Assembly (NCBI GenBank): GCA_008632985.1
Contig: QPGO01000035.1
Location: forward strand, 545,899-609,898
Length of the DNA stretch: 64,000 nt
Origin: Psammoneis japonica
Lineage: Eukaryota
Direction of reading: 5' to 3'
The translations under genes and the position numbers were made by a program. Shown here in pieces: positions 13,758 through 58,787 of this stretch; position 1 is the first letter of the stretch; each line of letters opens with the position of its first letter. Under the pieces are notes generated by a model, which ran no database searches, was not told where the DNA came from, and was given only the letters and a program-made list of their open reading frames with translations.

Positions 13758-13793
<36 letters not shown>

Positions 13794-14952: not shown

Positions 14953-15060
14953 TGATGAGGTGTGAACGAGCCGCCACACACTTGGTTTTTGTGCTGTGAG
15001 AGAGCCCCCTTTGCTGCACAACTTGTCTGTGCAGTTGCCAAGGTCAAGCTTTGGGAGCAC

Positions 15061-36315: not shown

Positions 36316-36341
36316 GATAAAAGGGATGGCAAGGGGGTGCG

Positions 36342-37200
36342 GGGGAGACTCTGCTTTCTTTACGCTGGGACGAAAAGTGAGTGAAAGCATTGGAGCATCC
36401 CAACTTGCCACGACCGTGGCCCCATCGAGGTTTGGGGACAGTTTTCGACTGGCATTCGTGGAAAGCGATTGTTTCTCGATCAAATCAAAAGTCAAAGCCT
36501 TACAGCAAAATGTCAAGCTTCAAAACATTTGTCTCTTGATTGAATTTTCGTTGCTCTGCTCATGATATAGACTAAACTTCAAAGAACTGGTATCACAAAA
36601 CTCACAATACCGCATTCACAACAGACAGCAGCATGCCTCCAAGCACCCGCCCACAGCAAATACAAAAGCTTTTCGTAGTGCCATCATGTTCAGTTCGGTT
36701 CGCGCTTGTCCGCTTTTTGATGGCCCGAGACATGTTGCACCAGCGTTGCTCCTGCTTTCTGAGCCGCTTTCTGAAATCCCGAAGTAGTTTTTCTGCAATT
36801 TCTCATCTCGATCCGCATCTAGAAGAATATCTCATCCTCCACCGCAGCGGTTCTGCTAATCACACTGGAGAGATCACTGAAGGAAAGTGTTGTGACAACT
36901 GACGAAACATTACAATGGGTCCTGCTGGATACCGAACAGGTTGCGAACGAGGCAATCACTTCTTCCTACTCCCTGAACACAGTGCATGATGATTCTCGCA
37001 ATCGCTCTTTTGTCTGTTGTCGCATCAGAGTCTGAATATTCCAATTCACTACTGTAACAATCCACTCTTTTTTATCGTCGTCACTCGTAAAGGAGGACAT
37101 CTTCACAATGTTGAGAGAACTACCCTCGCCACCAGCAACAACAACATCATCATCGGCGTTGTCATCGTTCATCGCTCATCGTGTACCGGTATTTCGTTTC
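36342..37200. repeat. Segmental duplication, copy 1 (pairs with 45707-46573; homology continues into the PP2C-like gene)
   Basis: Long near-identical colinear sequence, e.g. gtgagtgaaagcattggagcatcccaacttgccac ... gagatcactgaaggaaagtgttgtgacaa. Confidence 0.92.
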
Positions 37201-37352
37201 TGCTATTTCCAAGTTCGATGTTCGCACATCTTTTAGCATGTTAGCATGGACGCCTTTATTGGATCACATGTCCCACATTGATCGACGATCGATCATCGTT
37301 CACACCATGATCCTCTTGCCTCTTGCCTCCCTCGCTGTGGCATCCGACAGTC

Positions 37353-37855
37353 ATGAATGTGTACGAGAGTCAGCTGAGATCCAAGGCCAGGAAATGCCTT
37401 GACCATTGCATGGACGCATTTGTTGCAACACTCGCGGCTGTGTTGGCGTGGTCGATCATGGGCGGAGCTGCAAGCATCGTGGGTCATGGGTGGACGGAGC
37501 AGCAGCTCACGGGTGGCCAGTGGGCTGCACGCATTCTTTGCAAGGCCGTCCAAGAAAGTCTCACCCATGGTATGATCCTATCCGGAATTGCAAAGATGCA
37601 AAGACTCTGAATTTGTTTGCCCACATTCCAGGCACCCAAGGAAAAGAGCAATGCGCCCCGAGCACTCGAGGTTTGACAAAAACAACCAGAACAACGTGCA
37701 TCAGTGTCATTCATCCTGCATTCCAGACACTTGCATCAGGCAATTCAAGTTGGAGACTGTCAAGCTGCCTTTGTGAACCAGAACGGAACAATTGCAAAAA
37801 GTCTCCAGAAATTCAAAATGTGTGTTCGACAGAGAGTCACGACGGAGGACAGGGC
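37353..37855 (+). pseudogene. Truncated, frameshifted, TpA-mutated copy of the PP2C-like gene at 57906-58787
   Basis: MNVYESQLRSKARKCLDHCMDAFVAT...QLTGGQWAARILCKAVQE matches the intact gene. It breaks off at the DIRS-like relic. Confidence 0.88.
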
Positions 37856-37899
37856 CGGTGGAAAACAGGCCCAGCTTCTACACACCTTTTACACAGATT

Positions 37900-40800
37900 T
37901 TGCACTGAGGAGACAGTGGGAAAATGCTCAAAAACATTCAGGAAAAAGTGGTTCACTGCCGGGCCTGGATCCAGCCGCTTCACTGACATGCATGACCCCG
38001 CCAGACTTGGAGTTGATCCCAGACAAAACAACCAACAACACCAAGAATGTGTTTAAACCCAGCAAGGCTAAATTGCAATAGAGAGTCCCACAGCTCAACA
38101 CATTTGGCAGTGGATGCATTAGAGCTGCACTGGGAGGTTGGGTGTGAAATTTCACCCTGCCCTCTGCAGGGTCTTGCCACTCAACTGGTGGTGATGACTT
38201 GATGAAAAGCCCTGGATCTGGCCTGCCAGGGGGTGATCCAAGCTTCAACAAGCTTGGCAATGAGATGATCCCATGGTGTTGCACATCATGTCAATGGCGT
38301 TTTGATGAACACATCCCCATGTCAAGAGATCCACCCAGATTCTTGAGGCTCTCTGTCACCATTTTGAGCCACAGATGCATCTGAGTGCCAGAACTGTTTT
38401 GTTGCTGTCCGGGAAGAGATGTTGATGCTCCCTGTGCTCTCCCCAGACCCCCCCCCCAGCAATGTCAGCACCACATGATTCTTGTGGCAGTTCATGTGAG
38501 CTTGGAGACCTCCCAAGTCAAGCAACAGGCCCTCTGGCCCTTGCAGCAAGAGAACACAGCTTGCTGCAAAGCAGAAACCAGCCACTGGCCATGCATGAGC
38601 CCATGTCTCACTGATCTTGGAGTGTTCACCTTGTCTGCGGCCTGGGAGAGAAGGTTGCTCATTAATTCCACCAAAGTGGCCCTGTCAAGCCACCAATCCT
38701 GTCCCACCCATGCAGCATTTGCAGCCCACAAAAAAATGCCCAGCACTGGAACCAGAGTTTGGCACATGATGGGTCACTGCAATTGTGGAGGTGTTGCTTC
38801 ACATTCAAATCCACCAATGCCCATGCCTTGGAATTGGCCCCCACTGTGGCTTGCACCTGGTTGGAACAGGCCAGCCAGAGTCCATGGACAGTGTTGAATT
38901 GGGTGTGCATTTGAGAGCACCATCTGGGAGATGTGGAGGCAAACACCATGTGTGTGGCCACCCGCAATGATCAGACTCATGGGCCAGGAGAGGCCCAGAT
39001 TCCTGATGACCAGTCCCAGCCTCTGAGATGGCTGAAGACCTTGGGTGATTCTTCTCACATTGGATTTAACCGTCATCACCTTCTGGCTCCAGAGCATGTC
39101 AAGAATCATTCTCTGAATGCAGCATGCCTGCACCACATGATCTGAAATCCATGAGGGAGTCGGCTCTTGCTTGCAGAGCTTGCAAAACACTCTGGTGTCA
39201 GCACACTCAGATGATGCAATGAGGTGATCACCTTGCCTTGCCACATCAAATTGGTTGGCTTCCTGAGGCATCTGACACCATGCAGTGTTGGAGATCCTGA
39301 TGGCCTCATTGTCACTTGTGTGAGAACCTCCCACTCCTTCTCAATTCTCCGTTGTCAAACCCACAACATGAAACTCAGCCACAACCTTGATCCTTGGAAG
39401 CGCAGCACTTGGGACACAACACACTCTGACACATGGGCCAACCACCCACACTCAAATGTGCAATTTGCACAAAATGCACCTTGAGTCCACTCCAGGTTCC
39501 TCCCACAATTGGCACAATCGCCTCTTGAGTGAGTGCATTTTTTGGCAACTTGGAGCTGCCATGATGGAGAGACTGAATGGAACCAAAGGAAAAACACAAA
39601 CCAATGCGCAGCAAAGGCTTGCACATGTGGGCATGCCACTTGGGAGTTAGAAGACAGGGGCATGCAAAGATGTGGAATGACCTCTGACACTCAACTCAAG
39701 TGACTTGGAGCTGCTCTGAGGCAACATCAACCACTGCAGACAGAGCAGGATCCCAAATCCACAATCTAAACATGAACCTCAGCATGTCAAGTGGGGATCC
39801 ATTTGGGCAGCACCAGCCTCCTGCAATGCCATGCCCCAATCCATGGCAGATGCCACCTCTGGTTCTTTGGGGGCTCCCCACTGCTTGAGTGTTGCCCTCC
39901 TTGTTGGGTTCCACAAGTGTGCAGGGCATGCACCTTCAGCACTGTGCCAATCCTCAACCCAGTTCAATGGAGAGGGAGGCCTCTCAAGAGCTCCCAAGTG
40001 GAGGGGGGTGAATGACATCAAGCATTGGCCCTCCATGACCGCTTCAGCAAGGATGCCATGGGACATGCCACCACTTCCTTGGGCTGTCTCATCCAAGTCC
40101 CAGCACCATGCACCAGGCTGAGCTTGAGCACTTGGATTCTGCAAAACAGATGTGGATGACTTCTTGTTCCAACAGCTTTGGTCTTGAGGAGGCACCCATG
40201 TAGAATGCTGTCTCTAAAATGGAGTTGTCCATGATGAAATGAAGCTTGAGACCAAGAAGGTCTCTTGCCTCCCCATGCTCTTCTACAGTGTCTTCCATGT
40301 CCACTGTCTCTTTCCATTTTGATGACTCCAATTTGTCACCCTTTCCCCAGATGCCAATTTGGTCAGACACTGACAAAATCTGGCTTTTGGACTGAGGAGC
40401 CAAGGCCCTTTCCAGATGCATTGCCAAACCACACATTGCAGTGACAATTTCATGCATTCAAGCCATCACACAGGCCAGTGTGTCTGGAGCAAACATGCAG
40501 CATGGCCCCTGCAAGTCTCCAAGGAAATGGAGCTTGACGGACCATGAGTTCCAGCTGCAAGTCTTCCACTTCAATGCTGAGCTTGTCAGCTTTGTGCTTT
40601 GTGCTGCAGCCAACAATGAAATTCCTTTCCCAACATTGCCCACTCATCATCAGTGTGGCAACTTGGGTGTCATGAGTCCAGGGTGAGGTGCCATCCCTTC
40701 AAAAAAGAGGTTGAGGAAGTTGCAGGTCATTGCCACATGGACCACAAAACCTTGCTTCCTCTCCAAATCCTTGCAATCAAATGTGGGCAGCTGAACTCCC

Positions 40801-42130
40801 TCCCAGAGAGCTTCATTGCACACCATCAGGAGGCTCTTGACAATCAACTTTGCCTTGTCCCATTTTGTAGATGAGATGGTGACTGCTAAATCTGTTCCAT
40901 CTAGCACTCAAAAATTGCCCCTGCCCAATCACCAACCTCCTCCAAGGAGGGAAGGCCCAAAATTTGTGGAGAGCATTTTGAGTCCCCAAGTGCTGAAGGT
41001 GCAAGGCCATCTGCCTTGCCACTTTCCAAGCCTTCTCCTTGCTGAACCCTGGGCATCTCAAGTTGTTGACAAATGTCCTGAGATCTCCAGCAACCGCTTG
41101 ATGCAGCTCATTCTGCTTCATTGCTTTGGGCAGCCAAGGCTTGCAGCTCGGGTCTCCAGTTGAGTTGAAGATCACCGACCCAATCCTGCAGGATCATCCA
41201 GCAGCAAAGGGTCCTCCCTGCAACTGAAAATGCCTTTGTTTCTAATCTAAAATGCCTTTGCAAGAAAAGACATCCCACATGAGGAGACCCTCCTCCATTG
41301 CAAAAGGTTGACATTTTAAAAACTCACAAATTTTTGATGGACCATTTGGGAGGCTGCAGAGAAGAGCTGTCATCATCAATGTCAGAACAATGCAAGGTGT
41401 CTCAGCAATTTTGGGTGTGAGGGTAGTTTGAAAAATGGGCTGCTGCAACAGGATTTTTGTTTGCCAATCTGGGGCCTGCGTTGTCATGGCTTTTGTCAAC
41501 AACAATTTGGATCAAGTGAGGCTGCATGTTGAAGTTGCCCACCAAATGCAAAGTGGGCAGCAGTTTTTGTTGTTCCTGTCAAAATCAAAAGGGACAATGT
41601 GGCACTGTTTGCTCTTGTTTTTGTCAAAGATTTCTCATGCTTTGGAGACTGACATTCTTGGCAGCAGGTTGGTTTGGTGGCGGTGATTGTCCAGAGCACA
41701 ATGCCGGCAATCATGTGACACGATGCCTTTTTTCTCGTTTGCAGAGGAGTGGCGTCATCAACCCAACTCAAAAAACTTGTTTTGCCCCCCCCCCCCCCCC
41801 CCCCTGCTCAGCAGATCGGTTTATCTTTGAGGATGGAACATGTGAATGGTGGGGGTGATGCAGTTGAAAAACCCATGTTCACAAAGCTTGAAGCACAGCT
41901 GAGTGCACCACCAGGAGCGAATCAAACAGTCTCATCGCCAATTGAAAGGACACAGTCGAGATGTCTTTCTCCAAAGGTCTCCAAAGGAGATGTGTCTCGA
42001 AGTGCTTTCCATAACAGTTGCTTTTTGTGTGTGATTCAAGAGACAGAGACCTCATGTTGTGCAAGAAAATTTGAAATTGGCGCGCCAAAAGCATTCAAAA
42101 CAATGAAGCAGCCGGCGGCACAGCTTTTTT
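37900..42130 (-). mobile_element. Degenerate DIRS-like tyrosine-recombinase retrotransposon (RT, RNase H and recombinase-region remnants)
   Basis: GDLRTFVNNLRCPG...AWKVARQMALHLQHLGTQNA (decayed YVDD RT region), KWDKAK...DLERKQGFVVHVAMT, FIMDNSILETAFYMGASSRPKL (RNase H), MSFTPLHLGALER and ARQGDHL...IQRMILDMLWSQ. Recognised from family motifs; boundaries approximate. Confidence 0.7.
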
Positions 42131-42366: not shown

Positions 42367-45150
42367 ATGAAAGTTGAGTTTGTTGCTATTCTTCTCCACC
42401 TCCTCCTTCCTGCTGATGCTTTGTCATCGCAAGCCAATGGCATAGATGATTCTTTTAATTCAAGGAAAAACTACCATGAGGAAACAGTTGCGCACGAAGA
42501 CTCACGTTACCTAGTCGTTAGAAGTGGCGATAACAGGTACAAGGTGAAAAGTGGTGGCAAGGGAGGGAAGGAAGGAGGCAGCAAGAGGGGGAGTGGCAGA
42601 GTGCGAGGATCAAGCTCCAGCAGCAAGGGAACCCCACCGCCGCCAACACCTCCGAACCCGGCGCAACCGAGCAGCGAGACCAATGGTGGATCCAGCGGCA
42701 AGAGTTTCTCGTCTGGCTCTCGTACCAAGAGCAAGGTCCGAAGCAGTTCTAAGAGTCATGACTTGAAGAGCAGCAGCTATTCGTCGTCCAGTGACAACTC
42801 GTCGTCGAGCAGCGACAGCTCGTCTTCATCCATCAACTGTCCTCCAAGCAGCAGCAGCTCTAGCAGCAGCAAGAGTAGCAGCAGCAGCAGCAGCTCTAGC
42901 AGCAGCAAGAGTAGTAGTAGCAGCAGCTCTAGCAGCAGCAAGAGTAGCAGCAGCAGCTCTAGCAGCAGCAAGAGTAGTAGTAGCAGCAGCTCTAGCAGCA
43001 GCAAGAGTAGTAGTAGCAGCAGCTCTAGCAGCAGCAAGAGTAGCAGCAGCAGTGGCAGCAGCAACAGCCTTCGCAGTAGCAACAAGAGTAGCAGCAGCAC
43101 GAGTAGCAATGGAAACGGGGACAGTAGCAGTGGCGGTGGGGGTGGCTGTGTCGACTCGATAGAGACCTTGCGCGACGCTCTTTTCCATACCGGTACAGGC
43201 ATACGGAGGAGGATGCTAAGTGCTTCGGACGGCAAGATCATTCATATATCCATCTGCGCCGGTACTACGATATCCCTGAACGAAACTATCGTACTCGATG
43301 CTACGACCCTTCCCCGTGCCGAGGAAGTTCGGTTGAATTGCCAACATAAAAAGACACCACAACTCGAAGAGGAAGCCTGCACGTTCATTGGCACTGATCC
43401 AACGACGAAAATGTTTTTCTTGGGTAATGCTATTTCGCTGTCGCTAACGGATCTTGTATTTACGGGGCTCGCGGAAGTCATTGAGACATCATCGGACGGT
43501 GCAGCAGACCGCTCTGTTGACATTCAAGGCTGCAAGTTCAGAGACATAGTGTTGGGTGGTGTGGAGAGCAGTTTAATTCACGTCAAGAGCGGCAAAACGA
43601 ACGTACAAGATTCCACCTTCATGGACATTACTCGCACAGGATTCGTGCTGAATGTAAGGAGTGGTGATGCATGGATAACTGGATGCCGTTTCAACCAAAT
43701 TAGTGATCTCTTCGGGAGCACGGTTTCCTTGGAAGATGGGAAATTCCATATCGTTGATTCCACTTTCACCAGATTGTCTGCTGTACAGGTCAACGTTACC
43801 ACCGCGGTTACAGTGAAAGGGAGAAAAAGCCGGCTCGACGTGGACGGCACGCTTTTTGCCGAGTGTTCTACATCTCAACAGGACGGCGGTGTTATGCGGG
43901 TTGAAGGAATTAAGAAACTCTCCGTTCGAAATTCGATCTTTCAAAGAAATTCTCTGTCCATCGGCAATGGTGGTACTGTCAAAATTGTCGGGGGGGGGCG
44001 AAGAACTCATTCATTCGAAAACGTTGCAATGAGTGAAAGCTCGATTGGCATAGGAAGCGGGGTGTACATCAGCATCACGGATGCCAAAGTGCACATCGTG
44101 AAGTCGAATTTTACGAACGGGTCCACTAGTGGAGGGGGGAACGGTGGCGCAATATCTGTCGAAGGACGAAACAGCGAGCTGACAGTTGACAAGTCCACTT
44201 TTTCACTGTGCTCGACAGTGAATTTTGGTGACTTTTCGTTTGTTCCTGGTTCTGCTTTCGGGGGTGCCATTGATGTTAAAGACGGTAGGATACACATCAC
44301 CGATTCGGGTTTCTTTGGTACCGCTGCAAACTATGGCGGGATACTTAGCATAGAGAATGGATCGGGAGATATCACAGGGGTGGAGATTGGGGACACTGCC
44401 GCCTTTCTTGGCGGTGGTGCAATCAGCCTACGAAACAGCGAACTGACGCTTGAGAAGTCGAATTTTTCGAATTGTTCCGTAAGTGGAGGGGGGAACGGAG
44501 GCGCAATATCTGTCGAAGGACGAAGTAGCGAGCTGACGGTTGAGAAGTCCACTTTTTCACAGTGCGTGGCAGTGTCGTTTGTTCCTGGTACTGCTTTCGG
44601 GGGTGTCATTGATGTTCAAGACGGTATGATACACATCGCGGATTCGGGTTTCTTCAAGACCACTGCAAACTATGGCGGGATACTTAACATCGAGAATGGA
44701 TCGGGAAGCATCACAGGCATGGAGACTGAGAATAATGCCGGCCTTCTTGCCGCTGGTGCAATAAGGTTGGTAAACGGAGAATTGAATGTTGTTGACAGTT
44801 CCACCAAACTCATTTCGGCCAGAGGGAACCTGGGAGGCGCCATTGAAGTCGACAACGGGTGCTTGGATCTATTCAACGTTTCCTTTACAGAATCTGCAGG
44901 GTTTGGGTTGATTATCGACCAAACATCGAGTGCTATAATCCGACAGTCCTTCTTCAACGGCGAAAAAGCAATCTTCTTCAATACAACAAATCAGAAGCGA
45001 TCAGATCTGCGCAGGACGAAGGAGTGCAAAGGTGGTACTGTTGATTGCAACTTCTCTAGCAATACGTTTTGCTTGGGTGCATCGGAAAACAACATCTCCC
45101 CGGAAGGTCTTTGTGGAACGGAACCAACATACGCTTGTCCCGTTTCCTGA
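42367..45150 (+). CDS. Secreted Ser/Lys-rich protein with pectin-lyase-like (Pmp-type GGAI repeat) beta-helix, 927 aa
   Basis: Signal peptide MKVEFVAILLHLLLPADA, poly-Ser tract punctuated by Lys, RRRML motif, repeated GGAI / FxxC/N units and an internal duplication (~44130-44370 vs ~44480-44710). Confidence 0.85.
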   Translation: MKVEFVAILLHLLLPADALSSQANGIDDSFNSRKNYHEETVAHEDSRYLVVRSGDNRYKVKSGGKGGKEGGSKRGSGRVRGSSSSSKGTPPPPTPPNPAQPSSETNGGSSGKSFSSGSRTKSKVRSSSKSHDLKSSSYSSSSDNSSSSSDSSSSSINCPPSSSSSSSSKSSSSSSSSSSSKSSSSSSSSSSKSSSSSSSSSKSSSSSSSSSSKSSSSSSSSSSKSSSSSGSSNSLRSSNKSSSSTSSNGNGDSSSGGGGGCVDSIETLRDALFHTGTGIRRRMLSASDGKIIHISICAGTTISLNETIVLDATTLPRAEEVRLNCQHKKTPQLEEEACTFIGTDPTTKMFFLGNAISLSLTDLVFTGLAEVIETSSDGAADRSVDIQGCKFRDIVLGGVESSLIHVKSGKTNVQDSTFMDITRTGFVLNVRSGDAWITGCRFNQISDLFGSTVSLEDGKFHIVDSTFTRLSAVQVNVTTAVTVKGRKSRLDVDGTLFAECSTSQQDGGVMRVEGIKKLSVRNSIFQRNSLSIGNGGTVKIVGGGRRTHSFENVAMSESSIGIGSGVYISITDAKVHIVKSNFTNGSTSGGGNGGAISVEGRNSELTVDKSTFSLCSTVNFGDFSFVPGSAFGGAIDVKDGRIHITDSGFFGTAANYGGILSIENGSGDITGVEIGDTAAFLGGGAISLRNSELTLEKSNFSNCSVSGGGNGGAISVEGRSSELTVEKSTFSQCVAVSFVPGTAFGGVIDVQDGMIHIADSGFFKTTANYGGILNIENGSGSITGMETENNAGLLAAGAIRLVNGELNVVDSSTKLISARGNLGGAIEVDNGCLDLFNVSFTESAGFGLIIDQTSSAIIRQSFFNGEKAIFFNTTNQKRSDLRRTKECKGGTVDCNFSSNTFCLGASENNISPEGLCGTEPTYACPVS

Positions 45151-45706
45151 GTTTTCGGTAGAAGCCTGGGAGCAGATCCTCAGCTTTCACATATCTTCCT
45201 TACGAGTACATGGCATCGTCTGACGGATGAGAGTGTGGAAAACGAGTAATGATAATGACTATAATGAGTTCGGCTTTAGAGGTCCCTCTAGGGCCCAACT
45301 TGTAAGTATTCCCTTGTGTCAACGATTGGTACTAGGCTAGATGCATTCGATTTAACATTTCTGAGCTCTCCCATAATATTTACGCAGATACAGATCGGGG
45401 GGCTCAACCCTTGAAATGTTTTTCATACCGGCTGTTGTGGTGGCTCCCTCGGCGGCTTTGGCTTGTGCTCCCCATCCAGCGACGTCTATTTTCCTCGACT
45501 TTGGTCCCGGATATGCGGGTAATGTCAGACGTGATGATGCAGCAAATGCAATCATGAGCCGAGCTTCTCCCCAGACCATCAAGCAGTGCCCTGATAGAAG
45601 CGGTCAGTTATTGCACGAGAAGTTGAGTCGATTGGCGTTGGGTTGGGTGGAAGGTGGTGTCGCAATTGTTGATTGCCTCCTCCATCTGAACATTTTGCCC
45701 GGGCGG

Positions 45707-46573
45707 AGGGAGACTGTGCTTTCTTTGCGCTGGGACGAGAAGTGAGTGAAAGCATTGGAGCATCCCAACTTGCCACAACCGTGGCCCCATTGAGGTTTGG
45801 GAGCAGTTTTCGACTGGCATTCGTGGAAAGCGATTGTTTCTCGATCGAATCGAAAGTCAAAGCTTCACAGCAAGATGTCAAGCTTCAAAACATTTGTCTC
45901 TTTATCGAATTTTTGTTTCTCTGTTCATGATATAGACTTAACTTCAAAGAACTGGTATCACAATACTCACAATACCGCATTCACAACAGACAGCAGCATG
46001 CCTCCACGCACCCGTCCACAGCAAATACAAAAGCTTTTCGTAGTGCCATCATGTTCAGTTCGGTTCGCGTTTGTCCGCTTTTTGATAGCCCGAGACATGT
46101 TGCACCCTCGTTGCTCCTGCTTTCTGAGCCGCTTTTTGAAATCCCGAAGTAGTTTTTCTGCAATTTCTCATCTCGATCCGCATCTAGAAGAATATCTCAT
46201 CCTCCACCGCAGCGGTTCTGCTCATCACATTGGAGAGATCACTGAAGGAAAGTGTTGTGACAATTGACGACACATTACAATGGGTCCTGCTGGATACCGA
46301 AAAGGTTGTCAACAAGTCGTCCGGCAATCACATCTTCCTACTCCCTGAACACAGTGCATGATGATTCTCGCAATCGCTCTGTTGTCACATCACAGTCTGA
46401 ATATTCACTACTGTAATAATCCACTCGTTTTTATCATCGTCTCTCATAGAGGAGGACATCTTCACAATGTTGAGAGAACTACCCTTGCCACCAGCAACAA
46501 CAACATCATCATCATCATCGGCGTTGTCATCGTTCATCGCTCATCGTGTGCTGTATTTCTATTTCCAAGTTCG
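45707..46573. repeat. Segmental duplication, copy 2 (pairs with 36342-37200)
   Basis: Direct colinear near-identity with 36342-37200. Confidence 0.92.
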
Positions 46574-47068
46574 GGTGGGTGTGGGTGGGTGTGGGGGGTT
46601 GTGCAGTTGTGGACATGAAAGAAGGGGATTTTGCATGCAAATTTTGATGGACACAGCTGGTGCTGAGACACTCGACACTCATCTCACATTGTAATCTGCC
46701 TTGTCTGATGTGGTTGCACGCACAATCTGGAGTGGTTGCAATGTGAGTCTGTGTTTGGTTGTTCTGGAAGTGTGTCTCAACCCAACGTTGGTTTGGGACA
46801 GACCAGAACCATCCTCCCAGTGGTGCGGGGACATCTGGACAGGAGCTCATCTGAGATGGGGACATGGGAGCCTCCAAGTGTGGATGAGTGCTCTGTGCAA
46901 AACTGCACTGAGGTTCTGTACACAAAAGTGTTGTTGGTTGGCCATCAACATGTTGAGTCCTGCAAAAACTCATTGCAAATTCCTGTGTGTTGCACACAAC
47001 TGCCAGGAAATTGTCCATGATTCATTGCCCAATGCATGGCTGCACAGAACACTGACAGTGCTCACCTG

Positions 47069-47312
47069 TGCATGATGCTGCGCAAAGAGTCACAAGTGCA
47101 CTCGCGCAATCGCTCTGTTGTGGCACCATCAGAGTCGGCTCTTGAACACTCACCACTCTGCGCCACTCCAACCATTGTTTTTGTCGTCACTCACAGAGGA
47201 GGACATCTTCACAACATTGAGAGAACTGCCCTCGCCATCAGCAACAACAACATCATCATCACATCGGCGTAAATCGCTGTTCATCTTTCATCGATGATGC
47301 TTCAAGTTCGCT
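47069..47312. repeat. Third, TpA-mutated copy of the 46354-46573 / 36982-37217 segment
   Basis: Shared cgcaatcgctctgttgt...gaggaggacatcttcacaa...gagagaact...cagcaacaacaacatcatcatc. Confidence 0.8.
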
Positions 47313-48784
47313 CGTGGATGTCGGATGCGTCGGCACCCGTGACGCGCACGATTGCGCGCACGAGCATCTTCGCCTGTTCATCACATCTCGCATCGATCCA
47401 CAATCCACACATCAATTCAATTCAATCTTAAAAGTTGCGCCGCTGCTTTCAGCGGCTGCCTGAGGCTCAGTCATGCCTGATTTGTTCTTTCAATCCACAA
47501 CCATGGAATGGAGTCAGAGCGTCGGTGCACAAAACAAGTGCAGCTGCGCTTGACAAGTCATGGAGCGCTGGAAGACTTTTCCCATTCTCGTCATTTTGGT
47601 CAGTCTGTGGGGAGGGCAGTGGCCACACGTTTCGCCATTCCCACTGCCACTGGCCAGTGTCTTTTGAAGTCCATGTCTTCTGTGAACACTTCCTCCATGG
47701 ACTTGGAAAACCACCGGGCATGCTGGGGTGTGTCGGATGGGTGGTTGAAGAATTCTGCACATTCCTCTTCAATCCGCCCATCAAGGATTCTGTTGACAGT
47801 GAGTCTTGATTCCGAGGTTGGAGATGCAGCCGCTCGCATCCGGTTTTGCCACATGTCCCATGCCGCATTCCACAGCTGTTGAATTGGACCTGCCACCCAT
47901 CGTTCGCCTGCATTCCGACTCTGGATGAATTCGCAGTGCGCCTGTTGAGCTGCGGCCCATTCCATTGCTGGGAATCCTCGCACCAGAGCATGATCGCCAA
48001 GTTGTTCTTGTGCTGTGAATGCCTGTTGTGCTTGTGGATGGTCCGATGTTGGTGTGGGGCAAGGAAGCTCATCGTGCCAGCTCTTGATGATTCGCATGAT
48101 GCCCTTTCGTAAATCTGGATGAGTGAAATGATCCGTCATCCATTTCTCCAGGCTGTCAACCTTCTTCTGCCAAAGTTCCTGTGCCACAAAGGTCTTGCAC
48201 TGGAGCACATGGTCCACCCCATTTTCGTCTTCCCCGCATCTCGGGCATGCTGCGCTTTCCACCTTTTTCCAGCAATGCGCGTTGTTGTTTGTGGGAACAA
48301 AGCCTGTGTTCCACTTTGGTTGCCACAATTGTCGGAAGGTTGGACACCTGCGCATTGCTCGTCCCAGTGCTTGCCAGTCAATGTTCACATGAGTGTGTTC
48401 AACCTTTAGCTTCTTCTTCCAGCAATCTTTTGCAGATGGACCGCAAATGTGATCAAGGACCCTTTGTTCTTTCCATGAGGTTAACGTCGTGTCACCCAAC
48501 CGTGCCATCCAGACTGGTTGTGCAATTTCATGCGGAGCTGTGCCTTCATGCTCTCGCAGGGCTTCCCAGTGCGACTTGGCCAAAAGATCCATTTCAACAT
48601 TCAGTTGTTCAACGTAGGACAGTTCTTGCAGTGAGATTCTCTGATCCTTGTGGCCTTCCACCTCAATTGCCTCCACTGTCACAGGGAGTTCCTGAACCAC
48701 ACTCCTGATGGTGTGAATCAGATCACAGTTGGTGAGAGTCGGATCATCGCAGGAATTGCAAAAGCACGTTCTCAATCCAAGGTC

Positions 48785-49179
48785 GACGCGTTCCAGATGC
48801 AGGTGGGAATCCGTGTGACATTGGGCCCGCAGAATTCTGCGTGCGAGCTCCGCAGTGAAATTGTGCGGCAATTAGAATGTCAATGTTCGCAACAGAAAAT
48901 GAGGCAATTTTGCGAACGCACAAACTCGCACATGATTGAAGTGCATCGATTTTCACTCAGCCAGCTGCATTCTTCAGACATTGAAGAGTGCAACTGGCGC
49001 ATCATTGTCTCCATAAATGCATCATGTAAAACGTCTGGGGCTTCGCAAAACAGCAAGTCTGGACAATTTTTTTTAAATGTCACACGCAGAAATGCACGTG
49101 CGAAACATGCGACGGATGACAAAAATTGTTTGTGTCACACATCAGCACTGCGAGCTCCCACCTGGGGCTGGAACGCGTC
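48785..49179. mobile_element. MITE, family A copy 2 (395 bp), heavily TpA-mutated, nested in LINE RNase H
   Basis: TIRs GACGCGTTCCAG....AGGTGGGA and TSD GGTC. Inverted relative to 3064-3464. Removal restores the ACDCD-LGLRTCF frame. Confidence 0.93.
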
Positions 49180-49744
49180 GGTCGCAATCACATGCCAGAA
49201 TGATCTTCCCTTCACTGATGTTGCATTCATTGCACAGGCTTCATGGAAATGCCACGATTCCGAAGATTCCCCCCAGCTCCCCTCTGCAAGGCGCGAGGTC
49301 TGCAGCATCTCCCGGCATCTGATTCACTCCCTTGCACCGATGTGAATGTCCTTCACAGGGTGGCAGGATCATGCCCGCCATCGCCAATCCATCTTTATGA
49401 GATCCATCCACAACACTCAGGGCCGTCCCATTTTCAATTCCCTGAACTGGTGCCGACAGATCCGGTTGGTGTCCATGCGGAATGAACGACCAGTCCCCGC
49501 AATTGAGAGCTCTCCCTGGATCTGTCACTTGATGGATCGGTGATGTCCCTCTGTTGGTGTTGTCCTGGGACCGCTCTTTGTGACCTGAGTTGGTGGGGCG
49601 TCGTGAGGCATGATGTCGACGGCACCATTTGGTTGACATCGTGACCATCTGTTTCGTCTGTTTTGCGGCAGTCTTGTGCACAGTGCAATTGTGTCCTCTT
49701 CCTTGAAGCACACTCTGTCATCCGATTCCGAATGCCACCATGCT

Positions 49745-50832
49745 GGGACACACGGCATTTTGTCGCATTTGGCAACATTTTCTTAAATGAATTGATGATT
49801 TGTCGCGAAAAGACGTGAATTGCGACAAAATGTCCGGGTTGGCGACAAACGGGACAGAAACATTGTTTGATTGAGTTGCAAAATGATCAATGTCATCATT
49901 TGTGACCAACCTGAACTTTGGCGATGTCGTTTCAATGAGTTGGGCAATTGACAGAATTTGGCGATCGATGTCATCGACGAAAATTCATCCGACAAAATTT
50001 GTCGTGTGCGACAAATTTTGTCGCATCCGACAAATTTTGTTGGACATCCAAGAAATTTGTCGGATGTCCGACAAATTTTGTCGGCGTGCGACACAACACG
50101 ACAAGACAAGACACGACACGACACGACACGACACGACAAGACAAGACACGACACGTCACGACACGTCACGACACGTCACGACACGACGACTCACGAACGA
50201 AACACCCACGCCCCCCGCACACGCCAACCGCTAACGTCTCCGTTGACACTGCCGGCATGTCTCTTTTGCATGATGATGCAAAGCGACGATCATCCGCTCT
50301 CGGCGGTCTCCATGCTCTCGTCAATGCCGGGACAACATCGTACGCTTCTACACAGTGCAACGGAATGTGCCGGCATGTGTTGCTGCGCTGCACCTTTCAT
50401 CAGCGCGACTGGGCACTTCTGAATGTTGGGGAGCATTGCGTTGTCGGCATGTCGCAAATGTCCATCTGTCGGCATTTGTTGGCTCTTGTCGGCGTTTGTC
50501 GTACGTTGTTGGGGTTTGTCGGGGCTTGTCGGGGTTTGTCGGGGCTTGTCGGGGTTTGTCGGGGTTTGTCGGGTGCGACAAAATTTGTCGTATCCGACAA
50601 AATCGCCAAAACATTGGTCAACAAGTGCAGTCTTCGCCGAAAGTTAAATTCATCATGTGGCACTGCAGTTGACACAACGTTTGTGTTTAGGACATGCCAT
50701 CGCCAATTAAATGATGATTTTGTCTTGTTTATCGCCAACGGTTGAAATTTGTCTCAAAGGGCGTTTTTCACGACAAATCGTCCAATTCATTTGTGGGAAT
50801 GTCACAATTGGCGACAAAATGCCGTGTGTCCC
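49745..50832. mobile_element. Non-autonomous TIR element (~1.09 kb) with internal CGACA/TGTCG arrays, nested in LINE
   Basis: Perfect 22-bp termini GGGACACACGGCATTTTGTCGC / GCGACAAAATGCCGTGTGTCCC, longer imperfect TIRs and a near-TSD TGCT/TGTT. Removing the element plus 4 bp restores EPTT-WWHSESDDR. Tandem arrays at ~50090-50190 and ~50510-50573. Confidence 0.88.
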
Positions 50833-51373
50833 TGTTGTCGGTTCCTGCATCCATTTTTCGAGAGGTCTCCGAAGTCGGAGTTGCTGGTTCCTGCCTGTGG
50901 CTAGGAAACTTGTTGTCAGTGCTTCTTGCCACAGCCGCCAGCACGGTCGAGAGGGACATCCTGCCTTCGGCCAGTTGTGCGTTGTCTGACAAGTTGCCGT
51001 GCCGTGCCAATGATCCAGAAGCATCCTTCTGCCATCTCCTGTCACTGCATCCGACAGCCGCACCGCATTCAGCCACATTCTGCGCAGGTTTGTCTTTCTG
51101 AGATGATCACCTTTGCAGCCGTGTGCTTCGAATGCTTCCATCAGAAACTTGTCATTTTGCCGCAGCAGTGGAATCGAGGTCTTCAGTGCGAGCAATTCAA
51201 TCGAGTGTGATGAGCAGAGTTGCCAAAGTGATTTGATCCAGGTCTTCGTGGCTAAAATTGCGAGTTTGTTGCAGTCCAGGGAGAATGCTCTGTCTCCATG
51301 CCCGAGTTCAAGTGTCATTGTCTCGTGTGCATGTTGCATCTCTCTCCCTGTCATCGACGATGAGTCCATTTGT

Positions 51374-51762
51374 GACGGGCTCCAGTCCCAGGTGGGACTT
51401 TTTGTGACATTTGCCCCACAGAATTCTGCGTGCAAGCTCTGTAGTTCGTACTCTGGCCAATGGACATGTTTGTCTTCGACATAAAAAAAACGGCCAAGTT
51501 TGCAGCACATCTGTCCCTGTTCGCACTCGAAGTTTTGGATGACACGCCTGCCCTGCGCCATTCTTAAGACACTCGAGAATGGCATAGAAGAAAAAAATGT
51601 TAAAAGTTGTTCAATGGACAGCCTGACAATTGCACCATAAAATCATGCAAAATTTCGCCAAAATCACGTAGAAATGTACGTGCGCGACATACGATGCGAT
51701 TCAAAAAACTGTCGATGTCACAGCTCAGCAGTGCGAGGTCCCACCTAGACCTGGAACGCGTC
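51374..51762. mobile_element. MITE, family A-related subfamily (389 bp), partly TpA-mutated, nested in LINE
   Basis: Ends GACGGGCTCCAGTCCCAGGTGGGA / TCCCACCTAGACCTGGAACGCGTC and TSD TTGT. Removal restores FLQQ-MDSSS. Confidence 0.9.
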
Positions 51763-52350
51763 TTGTTGCAAAAAGACAGCAACTTTTGCAATCCCTTGTT
51801 TCACAAAGAGTTCCAACAGGCCAAGTCCGTTAAATCGTTTGGGCGCAAAAAGAATTTTCTTCGGGAATGACCGAGGACAACCCACAGCCGGCAGTGCCAC
51901 TTCGTGCAGCGGTTTCTCTGTTCACTGACACTCAGCTTTCGCAAGAGATGTGGCAGCCAGTGGATGTTCAACTGATTTCACAATTCCGCCCGTCAGAGAA
52001 AACCAGGCCTCCGTTCGGTTTAAATGTCCGCATCGCACTTGATCCACCCATTTTCCCACTTTCATCGCCATTGCCTCGATCTGCGTGTCCGAGTTCCCTT
52101 CTAGCGCAATGTGCACACCCAATGTCTCTCTAGCTTCTGACACCTCCATTCTCTCTGCCGTTCTCCTGTTTCCCTCATGATCCAGTGGGGTGATGTCGCC
52201 GGGTGATTCATCCTTGTTCTGACAGGTCCAGCGGTCATTTACCCACTTGAAGGATGCGAGGGACCAGTGGCTTTTCTCTGGTGCAAGTGCACCTCCTGCA
52301 GCCCTGATTCCTCCTTCCCAACAATTGGACATCTCTTGGATCTCCTGCAG

Positions 52351-52785
52351 CATGCCTCCCCACTGGACAACACGGCGAGACCATGCACAAGCCTCTTGTG
52401 CGTGACAACGCAGTGTGTTGTCAACGCGCACCTGGGAAGCACGACCACAGGAGGGTGTGGCTCCAGGTCTTAGGAAATTCCAGAAGGATGCTAAGAGAGC
52501 ATCCGTGTGAAGCACACTAGCCCGTCGTCTGGCCCACGATGGCAGCGTGATTCCACACGATGACATCACTCGTGCACAGCGCGTGATGGCTTGATTCGCA
52601 CAATCCACAATGCGAACACACAATCGATTTGATGCGATCCAAATGCGAACGAACAGGGATTTGGCAAGATTCCCTGTTCGCACTGTCCCACTTTCTCTGC
52701 TCTAAACTGGCTCACAATTTTCACAGCGACAAAGTCGCAACACATCTTCTTTTTCAGCGCCTGGCACATGCATGGGGCACTCCAT
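52351..52785. mobile_element. ~435-bp insertion of unknown type just after the LINE RT FVDD motif
   Basis: ORF2 homology stops at STCEDVL and resumes in the same frame at LQEIQEMSNCWEGG. Flanks CAG/TAG (or CAT/CAT) suggest a 3-bp TSD. TIRs are weak. Confidence 0.6.
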
Positions 52786-55700
52786 TAGAACATCTTCACA
52801 CGTTGAGTCATCAGAGCCCGGAAAGCATGGAAGATCTGTGTCATCGACAAACATGCAACACACATGGTGGTGCGCGTTCTTCGAGATTGGTGTTGTCGCT
52901 CGGATGCCGCAGCCGTCTGCTTTGAGCACATTGATCATTGGAATGCCAACCACGAGCCAAATGGCTGGTGCAGCTCCATGGCCTTGAAAGATTCCTTGCA
53001 ATGGGATCTCGATGGCACCGTGTGGTTCTTCCGAGTCCCCGCACGCTGTTCTCATGCAGTGCTGCATCTGCATGAGTGTTCCAAGCATCATGAAAACCTC
53101 ATCTTCTCTGGCTCCAAACCTTCTCATGCATGGTGCTGCCACCGCATGCAACATTCGGTCACAGCACAATTTAGCGTCCGTGCTGTTGATGGCTCCTGGT
53201 TGATGTGATTGGCAGAACATGTCTCCCGTGAGTGCCTTGTTGAGAGCACAGAGAATTGCTCGATGTCTCTTCCTGCTTCCGCACGCTTCCCATGGAACAG
53301 CTCTGCATGTCTCGGCATTGTTGACAAGAGCCCGTGCGATGTGCTTGTTCATCTTGTCACACATGGCGTCGAACAATGCAATGATTTGAAGTTTCTTAAC
53401 GTGTGATGAGTCCATTTTCTTGGGGATCATGACATCTGCCGCCTTTGTCCAACACTCAGGTGCGTGTCCATGCTTGGCCGGAATGGCTGACACACATGCG
53501 TCAAATTCCACCAGAGTCTCGTCTGAGCAACCTGCCTTGTAGTCCGAGAAGGTCAGTCCGAAGGGGCTGCTGGTTGTGTGACCTTTCATTTTCTTCCAGC
53601 CAGTGACATGCTCCTCAGTGGTGCATTCCAAATGAATTTCCGGAAGTGGTGGTTGTGGACGCTTGAGCTGTTTGATGTATTTTGCTGCATGTTCATCCAC
53701 TCCTGGAGGAATGCTGTGGGTTCCCTCCAGTGCTCTTTTTGCAGCTGGAGTGTCCAAATTGCAGCCGAAGTCTTTGAGGAGAGGGTCCTTCATGAATGGA
53801 ACCGCATGCTGACTTGTCCGTGTTTGGCTGCATCTCGATCGTCCTTCACCCTTGCATGCCTCTTCCATTCCATCTTTTGTTGAGAACACCTTGTTGACCC
53901 CGTTGGGTCCTGGTGCCGTCACTGTTTGGAGAGCCGGTCGAGGTTTGCCAGTTGCTCGTTTAATGCAACTGAACATTCTCTTTTGTCGACAGCTGTGCCG
54001 AACAATTCTTTCCTCTTTTTCCTGGGTCGTGCCTTTTTCTTCTGCTGGTTTCGCGCAACGGATCTTGAACTCGTCTTGTCCAAGCTTTGCAGCCTTTTTC
54101 TTCAGTTTGTGATGTCTTTTCATTGCCATTTTATGTTCTGCCAGTGCTTGATGGGGTCGAAGTCGAAGCGCATCCGTTCTTCCTGTGTGCTGCACACGTC
54201 TGTTGATGATCTTCATGCTGACTCTCCGAAAATGGTGCAGCTTGTACACCAATCTCCATAAGTGAATCTCTTTCCTCGCTTTGTTGATGACGTTGCTCGA
54301 TTCGACCTCGTTCATGTGGAGCTTCCTGCATTGTGCTTTTGCCTCCAGCCTTGTTTGATGGTTTTGTTGGAAGATCCGCTTGTGTTCTTGTTGTTCTGCA
54401 AGTCCAAAAACGTCAGAGTTTTCCAATCGAATGGCTCTTCGCAGCAGATCATGTTTCAAGATTTCTGTCACCACGAGCTGCACGCACTTCTTTACAACTT
54501 TTGGGTCGCCTAATTTTCCTGCCAGTCGGTCTGAGATAGTCTCCGAGAGCTTCGGTGGATTGAAGCCCAGTGCACCAGGCTTTGAAATGTCAATCCATAA
54601 AAGGCGGTGGTCAGAGGTGCAGTCGAATTCTCCGAAACCTGTCATTCCTGCCCTGGTCACCTCCAAGGCTGGCGATGTCAGAATGGCATTGACCGGCATG
54701 TTAGAACGATTCTTGTCGCATGTTGCCACTGCTGGAAGATCCGGATGCGTGGTCTTCAGTGCGTCGATCAGATGAAGAGTCCTGCACCATGCAGTGAAGC
54801 TTGTCCCTCGAACATTTTCATTGAAGTCGCCTCCAACTGCTGTTGGGTCACCCTCTTCCTGCCATTTCTTGATGTGATGCACCAAGTCTTCTAGCACCAC
54901 TTGTCGTGGACAGCGCACATCATCCTTGGAAAGGAGGTGTGTTTCTTGTTGAGAGTAAACTCTGCCAGGATTAGCTTGGGTGTCTCTAACTGGTCGACAG
55001 ACAGTGACGATCCTTGTGTGAATGCCTGATTTGCCTTGCAGTCTCGCCCATGTCCATCTACCCAGTCCCGACGGGTCTTCACCACTCAAAATTAGGTGGT
55101 GGTTGACATGTCTGGTTCATAGATGTCCCACCCCCCCGCATTGCCTTTTGTTTTCTGTCGAGTGGTGCTTGTTTGTTGTGACGAGAGTGCCATGTTTTGA
55201 GAGGCTCCTCCAGCGGTCTTTCCATTGTTTGTGTTTAGGAATTCATCTGAAGTTCAAGTTGATCTCTGTCAAGCCCATGAAGTCAGAATGTTGTTCAGTG
55301 ATCCAGTTCATCATTCCTTCATGCTTGTCCTCAGCAGAAGGTGACACTGGAAGCCCACCAACATTGTGGAAAGCAATTCTGATGGCATTGTGCCATTTCA
55401 TCAATGTGCTGTCACCCCAAGCCTCATCCAATTGACGACCAGCAGTTCCTTGATTAACGTCCTCCTTTTGCGGCAGTCGTCGTGGCCGCTGAGGACGGCA
55501 GGGACTGGGGATCTTGACCCGCTCCCTCGGCCTGAGAGCTGGGATGGTCTTCCAGGTGTCCTTGCTTGGGATCCTTCTGGGCCAGACCATTGTCTTGGTC
55601 TTTTGCTGCTCGTAGCTTTTCCAATTCTTGAACTGGCGCTTCGTTCATTTCTTGCACCTCCTTTAGTTTCGCTCGGGTTGAGGGCGTGGTTTTGACAGAT

Positions 55701-57905
55701 GCGTCCTCCTCTTGTTCACACTCGTGATGATTCTCCAGATTTGCCAGATCAAAGGTTGCCGAACGTCTCGTGGCGGATGCATGCTGTGTGTCATTGTCCT
55801 CATTTCTGAGATGACCAACAGATTCCACATCAGCGGCTTGAGCCAGTTTTGCAGCAACTTCCTGTGCTGCTGCAAGTGGGCCTTGTGTTTCCTTCTGCCT
55901 GCCTGAATCTTTCTGAGCGTTCCCATCAGAAGACTTCCGTCTTTCTGTTCCATCCATTTGTGCTTTCTCGTTGGTCCGCTGTTCCTCCACACCCCATGGA
56001 TCTTCCTTGATCATGTCTGACAGCATTTCACTGTCCTCAGACGTTGTGAGTCCAGTTTCTGGATCGCATTCCGAGTTCTCGCACATGGCGATCCCTGCAG
56101 CCGTGAACCATGGTTCTGCTGATGCTCCGCAGACATGCAGACATTCTGGGGCGACGTTGTCAATCATTTGTGAGACTTGGTCCACCGATTTCCTTGGGAA
56201 TGTCATCACATGATCGCTCGGTCTATTCCACTTGACATCCAGGTGATGGATCAAGGGAATGATCTTGTCCAGATTGGTGGGATCCGGCATCCGTTTCTGC
56301 ATGAGATGCTGTCGTAGTGTCATCTCTCTACCAGTGACTCGCATCTTGTGGTCCGGATTGTCAAGAAAGCTGAAATCAAGTTGTCCAATGACTTTCTGGC
56401 AAAAGAAGTGTTGTCGTTTTTGAAGCTTGTCGATGTTCTCCTTGGTTTTGTCTGAAGCGCACTGCGTGGTGGGGTTCGAGCAGCACGGAACAAAGCGCAG
56501 CTCTGGTCCCAATGCCTTCTTCCTGGCACCAACCCTCCACAGTCGTTCCACCGCCAGCTTGACTTTGTGTGCCTTGCTTGACTCGACAACAATGTGAAGG
56601 GCTTCCGGATTCTTGTTTGGCACATTTCTGTCAAAGGTGGGTCGTTTTCCATCCTTTCCCGCTGTGGATCTCCATTGAATGCCAAGGCTGTCGTAGTCTC
56701 TGCCCAAGCCAAGTGATTTGCAGAATTGTCTGTGCAGTGTTTGCTCACTCATTGTTTTGGTGCTCTGATGTGACCATCCGATGCATTCAAAACGGGTCAA
56801 TTGACAAGGCACAGGGTTGCGTCCAATGGAGAATTTGCCTTTTTCCATGTCTGCAAACATTCCTGAAAGTTGCGAGCCATGGTTTGCCACAGTTCTGGGA
56901 CTGCAATCTTCTGCCACCTGGACAAGGCGCAGCTGACAGCATGTTGTGTGTTCGGCGTCAACTCTTGGATTGAGATGGTCCACCCCCAAGAAGGCACTTG
57001 GCATTTCTCTTTCCTTTGCCAGTCCTTCTGGAACATCTTCTGGAGAGGCCAGTTCTCCGAAAGTGTCCTCAAGATCAGGATCCCATGTGCCAATTTGGAC
57101 TTCTTGTCCAAGCATCTCTTGCATGATCGTGGGTGCTTCTCTTGGTGCGGAGGCCACTGCTTTCAGGGGCTTTTCGGATGGTGGGATGGTCAGGAATGCG
57201 TTGTGATGCAACTGACTCCAGGGAATGCCTTCAGCATGGTCAGTGTCTTCATCGTCATGTGGTGTGTCGGTTTGTTGCGACTCTTTGTCGTTCGTCTCTT
57301 CTTCATTTCCGTCATTTTGTAGAGTGTCTGTTTGCTGAGACTCTCCTTCATTGTTTCCTCCTCGTTTTCTTCGTCGGATTCCGTCGAATGATTCTCACTT
57401 GTAAGATGTTGAAAGGTTTCCTCTTCGTCTGAGGATTCTTCATGCATGTGATCTTCTTCTGTGATTGCAATTTCCGCCGGAGCGATTGCCTTTGAGTTCT
57501 CGTCCTTTTTTGTTTTGCCTTTGAGTTCTGTTTTTCCTGCTTCGCGCAAAGGTTTTTCCAACGTCAGGTGCAAGTTTTTTCTCCTTGTTGTTGTCTTCCT
57601 TGGTACGTGAATTTTGCGTAGAATTTGTACGAGTGTTCTTGTTTTTTACGGTCGTCCACTCATTGCTCTCATTATCCATTTCCTCGTTGTGAGATCTTTC
57701 AGTTGTTTCGTTTATCTGTCCTTGTCTCCTTTGCGTGGAGAGATGTTTTTCTTTCCGCCGGTGCTTCTGCGTTTTGTGCCTGCCATTGTGCGATTTTTTT
57801 AGCTTGTTGTTTGTACGTACGTGCGAGTTATCCACAATCCACACATCACACCATGATGGATGATGGATCTGGATCTTGCCACATCCCTCGCTGGATCCGC
57901 CAGTT

Positions 57906-58787
57906 ATGAATGTGCTCGAGAGTCAGCTAAGATCTAAGGCTGGGAAATGCCTTGACCATTGTGAGGATGCGTTTGTTGCAACTCGTGACTTTGTTGGCGT
58001 GGTCGATGGAGCTACAAGCGTCACGGGTCGTCGGTGGACGGCGGACCAGCTCACGGGTGGCCAGTGGGCTGCACGCATTCTTTGCGAGGCTATCCAAGAA
58101 AATCTAACCCATGACATGAGTCCATCTGAAATTGTAGAGACTCTGACGTTATCCTTGTTCCAGGCATACAAGCAAGAACGCGGAGCACTCAAAGTTTTAC
58201 AAAAACAACCGGAACAACGTGCATCAGCGTCGCTCGTTCTGTATTCCAGACATTTGCGTCAAGTAATTCAGGTTGGGGACTGTCAAGCCGCCTTTGTAGA
58301 CCATACCGGAACGATTGTTAAACGTCTAGAGAATTCAAAATATATCGATAGAGTCACGGCAGAGGCCAGGGCCATGTTTTGGCAGGCAGAAAAGCTCATG
58401 TTTTCCAATGGACTACAAAGCTACAATCGCGACCCTGGCCGCGACTTGATCCAGCCTTTGTTGGTTCGACAGTATCAGTTTCAAAACAACAAGCACGCTC
58501 CTCAACCTTATAGATACTGGGTTCTGGATGGCTTTCCAATCGAGCCCGAGGGCATTATGGTTCATAATGTTCCTTCCTCTGTGAAACACGTTATTCTCGC
58601 TTCGGATGGATATCCGACCTTGTTTTCAACTCTTCAAGAAACAGAGCAACATCTCTCGAATTTTCTCAAGGAGGATCCAATGATGGTGGGACGATACAAA
58701 GCGACCAAAGGACTTGTCGATGGAGCAGAATCGTTTGACGATCGTTCGTTTGTTCGGATACAAATTGAGTGTCAGGATATTTCTTGA
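57906..58787 (+). CDS. PP2C/PPM-fold phosphatase-like protein, intronless
   Basis: CEDAFV, VVDGAT, QVGDC, ILASDGYP and FDDRSFV match the Asp-containing metal-binding motif order of PPM phosphatases. Confidence 0.78.
   Translation: MNVLESQLRSKAGKCLDHCEDAFVATRDFVGVVDGATSVTGRRWTADQLTGGQWAARILCEAIQENLTHDMSPSEIVETLTLSLFQAYKQERGALKVLQKQPEQRASASLVLYSRHLRQVIQVGDCQAAFVDHTGTIVKRLENSKYIDRVTAEARAMFWQAEKLMFSNGLQSYNRDPGRDLIQPLLVRQYQFQNNKHAPQPYRYWVLDGFPIEPEGIMVHNVPSSVKHVILASDGYPTLFSTLQETEQHLSNFLKEDPMMVGRYKATKGLVDGAESFDDRSFVRIQIECQDIS

Follow-up and report, generated by a model that had tools for sequence, protein, structure and literature searches.

By its gene content, the window (the whole 64-kb stretch of DNA analysed here, from a single sample) is nuclear DNA of a diatom. 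A single-exon CDC20 gene finds its closest matches among diatom proteins, at 70–77% identity, which points to a diatom host, and other ORFs of an ordinary eukaryotic kind encode a SAM decarboxylase, a lactonase, a Rad51-like protein, an ankyrin/ion-channel protein and a PP2C phosphatase. In the gene regions the odds are 0.53 for TA and 0.94 for CG. Set among these regions are six older blocks of 1.5–6.5 kb that are poor in both dinucleotides, with pooled odds of 0.05 for TA, 0.20 for CG and 1.81 for CA/TG, and a LINE-like element into which two MITE copies are nested; a third copy lies in an older block. The features on which the argument turns are as follows.

46600–57600, minus strand: host element, a copy of a LINE-like non-LTR retrotransposon of about 10–11 kb (TA odds 0.11, CG odds 0.73, CA/TG odds 1.54)
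48785–49179, plus strand: MITE copy in the TA-poor, putatively converted state (4 TA, 24 CG), within the ORF of the host LINE; target-site duplication at 48781–48784 and 49180–49183
51374–51762, plus strand: related MITE of another subfamily, apparently converted in part (11 TA), within the same LINE as the preceding copy
3064–3464, minus strand: MITE copy in the TA-rich state (32 TA, 26 CG)
3465–6652, no strand assigned: TA- and CG-poor block, one of six, delimited by composition
About 11500–15000, 18250–23100, 27354–34000, 37300–42000 and 62494–64000: the other five TA- and CG-poor blocks, delimited by composition
37321–37856, plus strand: PP2C pseudogene fragment, frameshifted by indels, on the border of a TA-poor block; TA and part of the CG lost relative to its parent
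57876–58787, plus strand: parent PP2C-type phosphatase gene, with orthologs at 52–65% identity, used to polarise changes
4246–4446, plus strand: gene-derived fragment in a TA- and CG-poor block (0 TA and 1 CG; its partner at 883–1084 has 6 TA and 11 CG)
15062–15324, plus strand: fragment of a Rad51-like gene at a block edge (5 TA, against 16 in the gene copy at 8143–8449)

The CA/TG odds rise to 1.54–1.81 in all blocks while the total of pyrimidine–purine steps stays unchanged, as expected if TA and CG had passed into CA/TG by transitions. GC content in the blocks (0.48–0.51) has stayed the same or risen slightly, block edges are abrupt, on a scale of about 100 bases, and TA-free runs extend up to 1164 bases (median TA spacing, 18). 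The six older blocks consist of complex rather than low-complexity sequence and contain long spurious ORFs with 0–1 Tyr; such ORFs arise in TA-free DNA because TAA and TAG are missing. Among 18 ORFs of the older blocks none had a credible Pfam match, a Pfam search of 34 block ORFs gave weak matches only, all below the cut-offs, and no relatives were found for the single older-block ORF that was searched. With no recognisable transposable-element proteins in them, the older blocks are presumptive transposon blocks. The last of them (62494–64000) is multi-copy by depth, at 532–2759 compared with ~60 for single-copy sequence.

The three MITE elements lie where the first-pass annotation had placed them, each with a terminal inverted repeat and a target-site duplication. 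Their inverted ends are perfect over 12 bases in all three, the elements are 389–401 bases long, and the four-base duplications, read directly, are GGTC for copy 48785, GAGA for copy 3064 and TTGT for copy 51374 (copies are named here by their first positions). Short, devoid of an ORF, bounded by inverted ends and duplications and present in many copies, they belong to a MITE family, which shows no fixed target sequence and has internal palindromes. No further family copies beyond these three were found in the 64-kb window. In contigs of public run X1, from the same organism, the summed depth of the family is ~65,000 against ~60 for single-copy sequence, which indicates copies on the order of a thousand; the runs yielded some 6300 family contigs, and the state of the family was read from loose-end consensus strings. 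The MITE end motif had 0 matches in a scan of metagenome contigs and was absent from all 80 related LINE loci. Copy 3064 stands out as a TA-rich island in TA-poor DNA (about 2300–6650): its last TA is at 3448, the next TA lies at 3811, and positions 2301–3000 hold only 10 TA.

The element that hosts the other two copies has its largest ORF at 52705–55116 on the minus strand, which matches proteins of ~1800–1900 amino acids with E = 3e-169. When four LINE relatives were searched against Pfam, one had RVT_1 above the cut-off together with Exo_endo_phos at 22.7 bits (cut-off 24.5), and another had a weak zf-RVT match at 20.4 bits (cut-off 27.5); in the window copy itself only a weak Exo_endo_phos match remains. 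The large ORF, with endonuclease and reverse transcriptase, assigns the host element to the LINE type. Matches by tblastn to ten relatives cover it from 55548 down to 47621, stopping at 49181–49184 and resuming at 48724–48778, with a further break at 51351–51372 and 51760–51793. The breaks coincide exactly with the two MITEs and so identify them as nested insertions. The LINE block is multi-copy (depth 180–340 against ~60 in run X1), and two contigs of that run, from host paralogs, carry an empty-site joint that passes from 51369 to 51763, skipping 393 bases and leaving a single TTGT. Paralogous LINE copies thus exist without the 51374 MITE, from which we conclude that this MITE entered the host copy as DNA.

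The first-pass annotation had compared copy 48785 with the reverse complement of copy 3064 by hand and estimated that about 26 of 30 TA sites were converted and four kept, that CpG was mostly untouched with about three sites changed, and that other differences were few. A MAFFT alignment of 48785–49179 with the reverse complement of 3064–3464 (395 columns, 43 substitutions) and the substitution table drawn from it bear out this spectrum. Read from copy 3064 to copy 48785, the substitutions comprise 17 T>C, 15 A>G, 3 G>A, 1 C>T and 7 transversions; T or A in copy 3064 faces C or G in copy 48785 in 32 of the 43, and AT>GC changes stand to GC>AT changes as 32:4 (binomial p = 2e-6). Of the TA sites in copy 3064, 31 can be aligned, and there copy 48785 has CA at 14, TG at 13 and TA at four, with 0 transversions at the 27 sites that differ. 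CpG was kept at 23 of 26 sites, and the three lost became CA (two) or TG (one). Changes are thus concentrated in TA sites, where they affect 27 of 62 positions compared with 16 of 333 elsewhere (Fisher p = 3e-14). The non-TA AT>GC changes of the pair (columns 182, 205 and 226) fall in AA/TT contexts.

The annotation had further taken TA to be ancestral, with the related copy 51374 as an outgroup that agreed. Copy 51374 can be aligned to the pair only at its two ends, over about 72 and 98 bases at 77–79% identity, and at the 15 informative sites found there it has TA at five, CA/TG as in copy 48785 at eight and another dinucleotide at two. The agreement therefore extends to five sites; the examples quoted came from these alone and left out the eight that disagree, at all of which copy 51374 has the same one of CA/TG as copy 48785. 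Given the 5:8 split and the position of copy 51374 itself inside a converted block, the outgroup argument is weak, and polarising the pair by this copy was dropped as indecisive. Four of the eight shared sites stand in a GTAG/CTAC context, and the pair has the same outcome at six of its seven such sites, so a context rule partly explains the outcomes common to copies 48785 and 51374; for independent conversions to give the same one each time, the outcome would have to depend largely on context, and the measured bias is modest (22:9). Elsewhere in the family, a 19-contig loose-end consensus has CA at the site matching column 84, where copy 3064 has TA, and other loose ends show TA at columns 68 and 72 and also contain TA-rich stretches. 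The ancestral status of TA is nonetheless supported, by the Tyr codons of the host LINE, by the normal TA content of its relatives and by a PP2C pseudogene.

Both Tyr codons, TAT and TAC, contain TA, so that conserved Tyr positions polarise the change in the host. Across the whole LINE, 24 conserved Tyr codons have become Cys in nine cases and His in nine, are kept in two and read otherwise in four, whereas other conserved residues are kept at 54–91% (Trp 40/48, Pro 39/43, Gly 61/73). A 31-sequence alignment of the largest ORF gives the same picture, with Cys (4) or His (3) in 7/7 conserved Tyr columns and with Pro kept in 16/16 and Trp in 8/8. Over all aligned LINE pairs Tyr identity is 3.1%, the replacements being His 112 times and Cys 111 times, and the Tyr content of the relatives is normal (2–3.5%). 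Related LINE loci in metagenome contigs have TA odds of 0.52–0.82 in 80 of 80 cases, compared with 0.11 in the host copy, in a set that was picked through intact motifs and so favours unconverted copies and would miss converted relatives. At 56812–56813 the window has CA and three paralogous LINE contigs of run X1 have TG, the signature left when a single TA is converted independently in separate copies. Judged by its codons, the DNA that hosts copy 48785 has demonstrably changed from TA to TG/CA.

A second, independent case of TA loss is, on comparison with its parent gene and orthologs, the PP2C pseudogene fragment. Of eight non-synonymous codons with TA in the gene and CA/TG in the pseudogene, orthologs (n = 18) match the gene at six, including Tyr98, Tyr123 and Tyr156; where the gene has CG and the pseudogene CA/TG, they match it at nine of ten. 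The fragment belongs to a segmental duplication of ~1.5 kb, in which 36339–37856 corresponds to 45703–46573 plus 57874–58373, including the start of the PP2C gene, and the two halves of the second copy are separated by the 11-kb LINE. One half is unconverted, with 25 TA in each of 36339–37217 and 45703–46573, and the adjoining half (37321–37856) is converted; identity between the duplicates is 90.8% in the former and 76.6% in the latter, the PP2C half. Conversion of one duplicated half and not the other argues that it took place in situ and regionally.

From these lines of support, rather than from direct reconstruction, we infer that copy 48785 was very probably converted in place after insertion, with TA as the ancestral state. 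Its kept TA sites include TAA/TAG contexts that resist conversion in all blocks. Copy 3064 sits in an old, CpG-depleted block, which may have ceased to be a target; alternatively, the copy may have inserted recently.

Several properties of the conversion can be read from the blocks. Strand use in the MITE pair is even (14 CA against 13 TG), and the series of His and Cys replacements along the LINE forms 15 runs compared with 10 expected, with no strand clustering. TA left in the blocks is enriched in TTAA (22.8% against 3.7% outside) and CTAA/TTAG (25.9% against 9.0%) and depleted in ATAT (0 against 6.5%) and ATAC (2.5% against 16.1%). At 22 of 31 informative sites the A on the edited strand is followed by Y and not by R (12:6 for the MITE, 10:3 for other pairs), and Tyr codons of the LINE that follow a pyrimidine became Cys seven times and His twice. 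The residual contexts, the Y after A and the Cys excess together point to the motif TAY>TGY. Two copies within one older block differ as CA against TG at 14 dinucleotide pairs and are identical at 40, which places the action of the process after duplication. CpG is retained in the LINE block and in both MITEs, so that TA conversion either outpaces CpG decay or proceeds independently; the older blocks alone show loss of CpG, a second process that works more slowly.

We consider it probable that these patterns reflect a point-mutation process, acting on DNA and confined to transposon-rich blocks of the diatom genome, that turns TpA into TpG or CpA. It would produce A:T>G:C transitions at the A of 5′-TA-3′ on either strand, with a pyrimidine preferred after the A (TAY>TGY), and would run close to saturation. 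Copy 48785 would have inserted into a young LINE copy and then been converted along with its host, copy 51374 would have been converted in part within the same LINE, and copy 3064, in an older CpG-depleted block, would still be in the original TA-rich state. Beyond the observed spectrum, its direction in the LINE and in the pseudogene, the use of both strands, the sharp block limits and the context bias, we read the process as genome defence of a targeted, RIP-like kind and not as a passive bias, since change that is near-saturating, made of transitions only, tied to a three-base motif and confined to transposons looks enzymatic and targeted.

A sequencing or assembly artefact, in which base modification in silent chromatin is misread and the true DNA still reads TA, is very improbable. 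Sharp boundaries are what chromatin domains would give, and run X1, whose platform is not on record, may be the source data of the assembly, in which case its agreement with the window is not independent proof against a platform artefact. Its contigs, built from exact 31-letter words, nevertheless reproduce the block at a single-copy depth of ~60, equal to that of the neighbouring genes, with 1–3 other letters per kb, and one of them crosses the LINE–MITE junction (47735–48812) with one other letter. The converted copies differ by indels and ordinary substitutions as well, and a modification that paired as G/C in every read should become a fixed mutation at the next replication. A nanopore-type miscall was dropped, since the converted sequence recurs in word-exact contigs of normal depth; run X2, with coverage of the flanking genes and almost none of the LINE block, speaks neither for nor against. 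It is extremely improbable that RNA of the LINE, with its nested MITEs as passengers, underwent A>I hyper-editing before reverse transcription placed it at this locus. The host is a retrotransposon, and ADAR-type enzymes favour a 5′ U; RNA editing should, however, leave A>G on one strand, and neither the balance of His and Cys in the LINE (112 against 111) nor that of CA and TG in the MITE (14 against 13) has this form. Moreover, the pseudogene and gene fragments outside any retrotransposon are also converted, and the 51374 MITE, absent from paralogous LINE copies, entered as DNA. Two other candidates were rejected: selection against TA, to avoid TA-targeting transposases or stops, is implausible for dead elements at 85–100% saturation, and GC-biased gene conversion would need pre-existing G/C alleles at every TA site.

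We also regard as distinctly unlikely the classical RIP-like direction, in which the family was natively TA-poor, copy 3064 (and copy 51374 in part) was hit by C>T at CpA, and copy 48785 is ancestral. This reading would account for the eight of 15 sites at which copy 51374 shares the CA/TG of copy 48785, always the same one, for the CA at one converted site in the 19-contig family consensus, and for a copy 3064 that is TA-rich exactly to its own borders, as repeat-limited CpA>TpA change would leave it; in addition, diatom DNMT4 enzymes, of unknown function, are described in PMC9998398 as related to RID, the fungal RIP enzyme. Yet the 64 kb hold no other trace of CpA>TpA, and the DNA around copy 48785 went the opposite way, with 18 of 24 conserved Tyr turned to Cys or His. 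The MITE would have had to be born with 4–5 TA in 400 bases, whereas loose ends and the outgroup carry TA, and the TA sites kept by copy 48785 include the TAA/TAG contexts that are resistant across all blocks. If the TA-erasing direction is accepted, its chemistry could take more than one form. Thymine oxidation at TpA by a TET/JBP-type enzyme, giving 5-hydroxymethyl- or 5-formyluracil that mispairs with G, or repeated error-prone repair synthesis with a WA motif, in which a polymerase-eta-like enzyme puts G in place of A, is a rather unlikely source. A WA motif is characteristic of polymerase eta, and 5-formyluracil mispairs with G; T>C and A>G at TA are indistinguishable in double-stranded sequence, and the few non-TA AT>GC changes, in AA/TT contexts, fit the WA motif. 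Both routes are expected to give some transversions, against which stand the 0 transversions at the 27 converted TA sites of the MITE and the dominance of Cys and His among Tyr replacements, and error-prone synthesis would also have to reach near-saturation with as little collateral damage as 16 changes in 333 other positions. We tentatively favour enzymatic deamination of adenine to hypoxanthine in transposable-element chromatin as the mechanism, which would explain both the purity of the transitions and the T-A-Y motif. U-A-C is the context of TadA/ADAT-type deaminases and resembles the T-A-C/T motif. More speculatively, diatoms of this lineage might possess an adenine counterpart of RIP, a deaminase or other base-modifying enzyme that is directed to transposon chromatin and makes the A of TpA(Y) pair with the partner of G on both strands.

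Among known systems, the process is RIP-like in logic and is not a member of the RIP family. As in the RIP of Neurospora and other ascomycetes, near-saturating transitions strike transposon or repeat DNA in a dinucleotide context, on both strands and with sharp borders, and the coding capacity of the element is destroyed. Unlike RIP, which turns CpA into TpA and leaves DNA rich in AT and TpA, the process described here erases TpA and raises CpA/TpG, and its host is a diatom, not a fungus. The C:G>T:A transitions that define RIP are not what is found, since the polarised changes are A:T>G:C (18/24 Tyr; orthologs 6/8), and TpA is not raised at the expense of CpA/TpG, the TA odds being 0.05–0.11 and the CA/TG odds 1.54–1.81. 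RIP depends on a RID-type DNMT, acts in the pre-meiotic phase and can strike any copy of a duplicated sequence. Here the LINE block is multi-copy with sharp borders, but only one half of the duplicated segment is converted, and because copy 3064, a 400-base repeat of a family with ~1000 or more copies, is untouched, simple recognition of repeats would not suffice. CpG decay by deamination of 5-methylcytosine likewise feeds CA/TG and is visible in the six older blocks (CG odds 0.20), but it cannot remove TA: in the MITE pair 27 of 31 TA are gone and 23 of 26 CpG kept, and in the LINE block CG odds are still 0.73 at TA odds of 0.11. APOBEC3, which makes C>U on cDNA, and ADAR, which makes A>I on double-stranded RNA, resemble the process in hypermutating mobile elements in a short sequence context, and ADAR yields A>G with a 5′ U/A preference. 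They differ from it in using a single-stranded or RNA intermediate with a bias to one strand, whereas here both strands are equal (His 112 against Cys 111, CA 14 against TG 13) and conversion in place extends to DNA transposons and pseudogene fragments. TadA/ADAT2 and the adenine base editors derived from them make A>I, read as G, and their T/U-A-C context fits TAY>TGY. Natural TadA/ADAT2 enzymes act on tRNA; activity of this type on DNA is, to our knowledge, confined to laboratory-evolved variants. Should an adenine-directed enzyme drive the process, the process would be categorically new.

The literature searched yielded only fungal RIP in its classical direction, and nothing on TA>TG/CA conversion among diatoms or other algae. 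We know of targeted repeat hypermutation as a genome defence only from fungi, and there only in the cytosine-to-thymine direction. A TpA to TpG/CpA process in diatom transposons would extend such defence to a major algal lineage and would suggest that a natural enzyme targets A:T pairs of DNA, a matter of interest to mutation biology and to base-editing technology. An adenine counterpart of RIP, if real, would rapidly, on an evolutionary scale, strip invading elements of TA and with it of every Tyr codon and two of three stop codons; among eukaryotes it would be the first known natural hypermutator of DNA adenine. In practice, TA-free blocks distort repeat libraries and skew transposon ages estimated from divergence, and the consensus sequences of families may mirror the converted rather than the ancestral state.

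The window also contains tandem arrays in two places. The ORF at 42367–45150 (927 codons), which is normal in TA content and had 0 Pfam matches, includes a long AGC-rich array with units of 33, 63 and 96 bases at 42847–43108, and is probably the gene of a low-complexity, Ser/Ala-rich protein. Between the two MITEs of the LINE block, 49988–50573 holds short arrays, namely a 19–20-base unit in ~5 copies, CGACA in ~20 copies and a 10-base TTGTCGGGGT unit in ~9 copies, and these fall where the LINE protein matches are interrupted (49562–50730).
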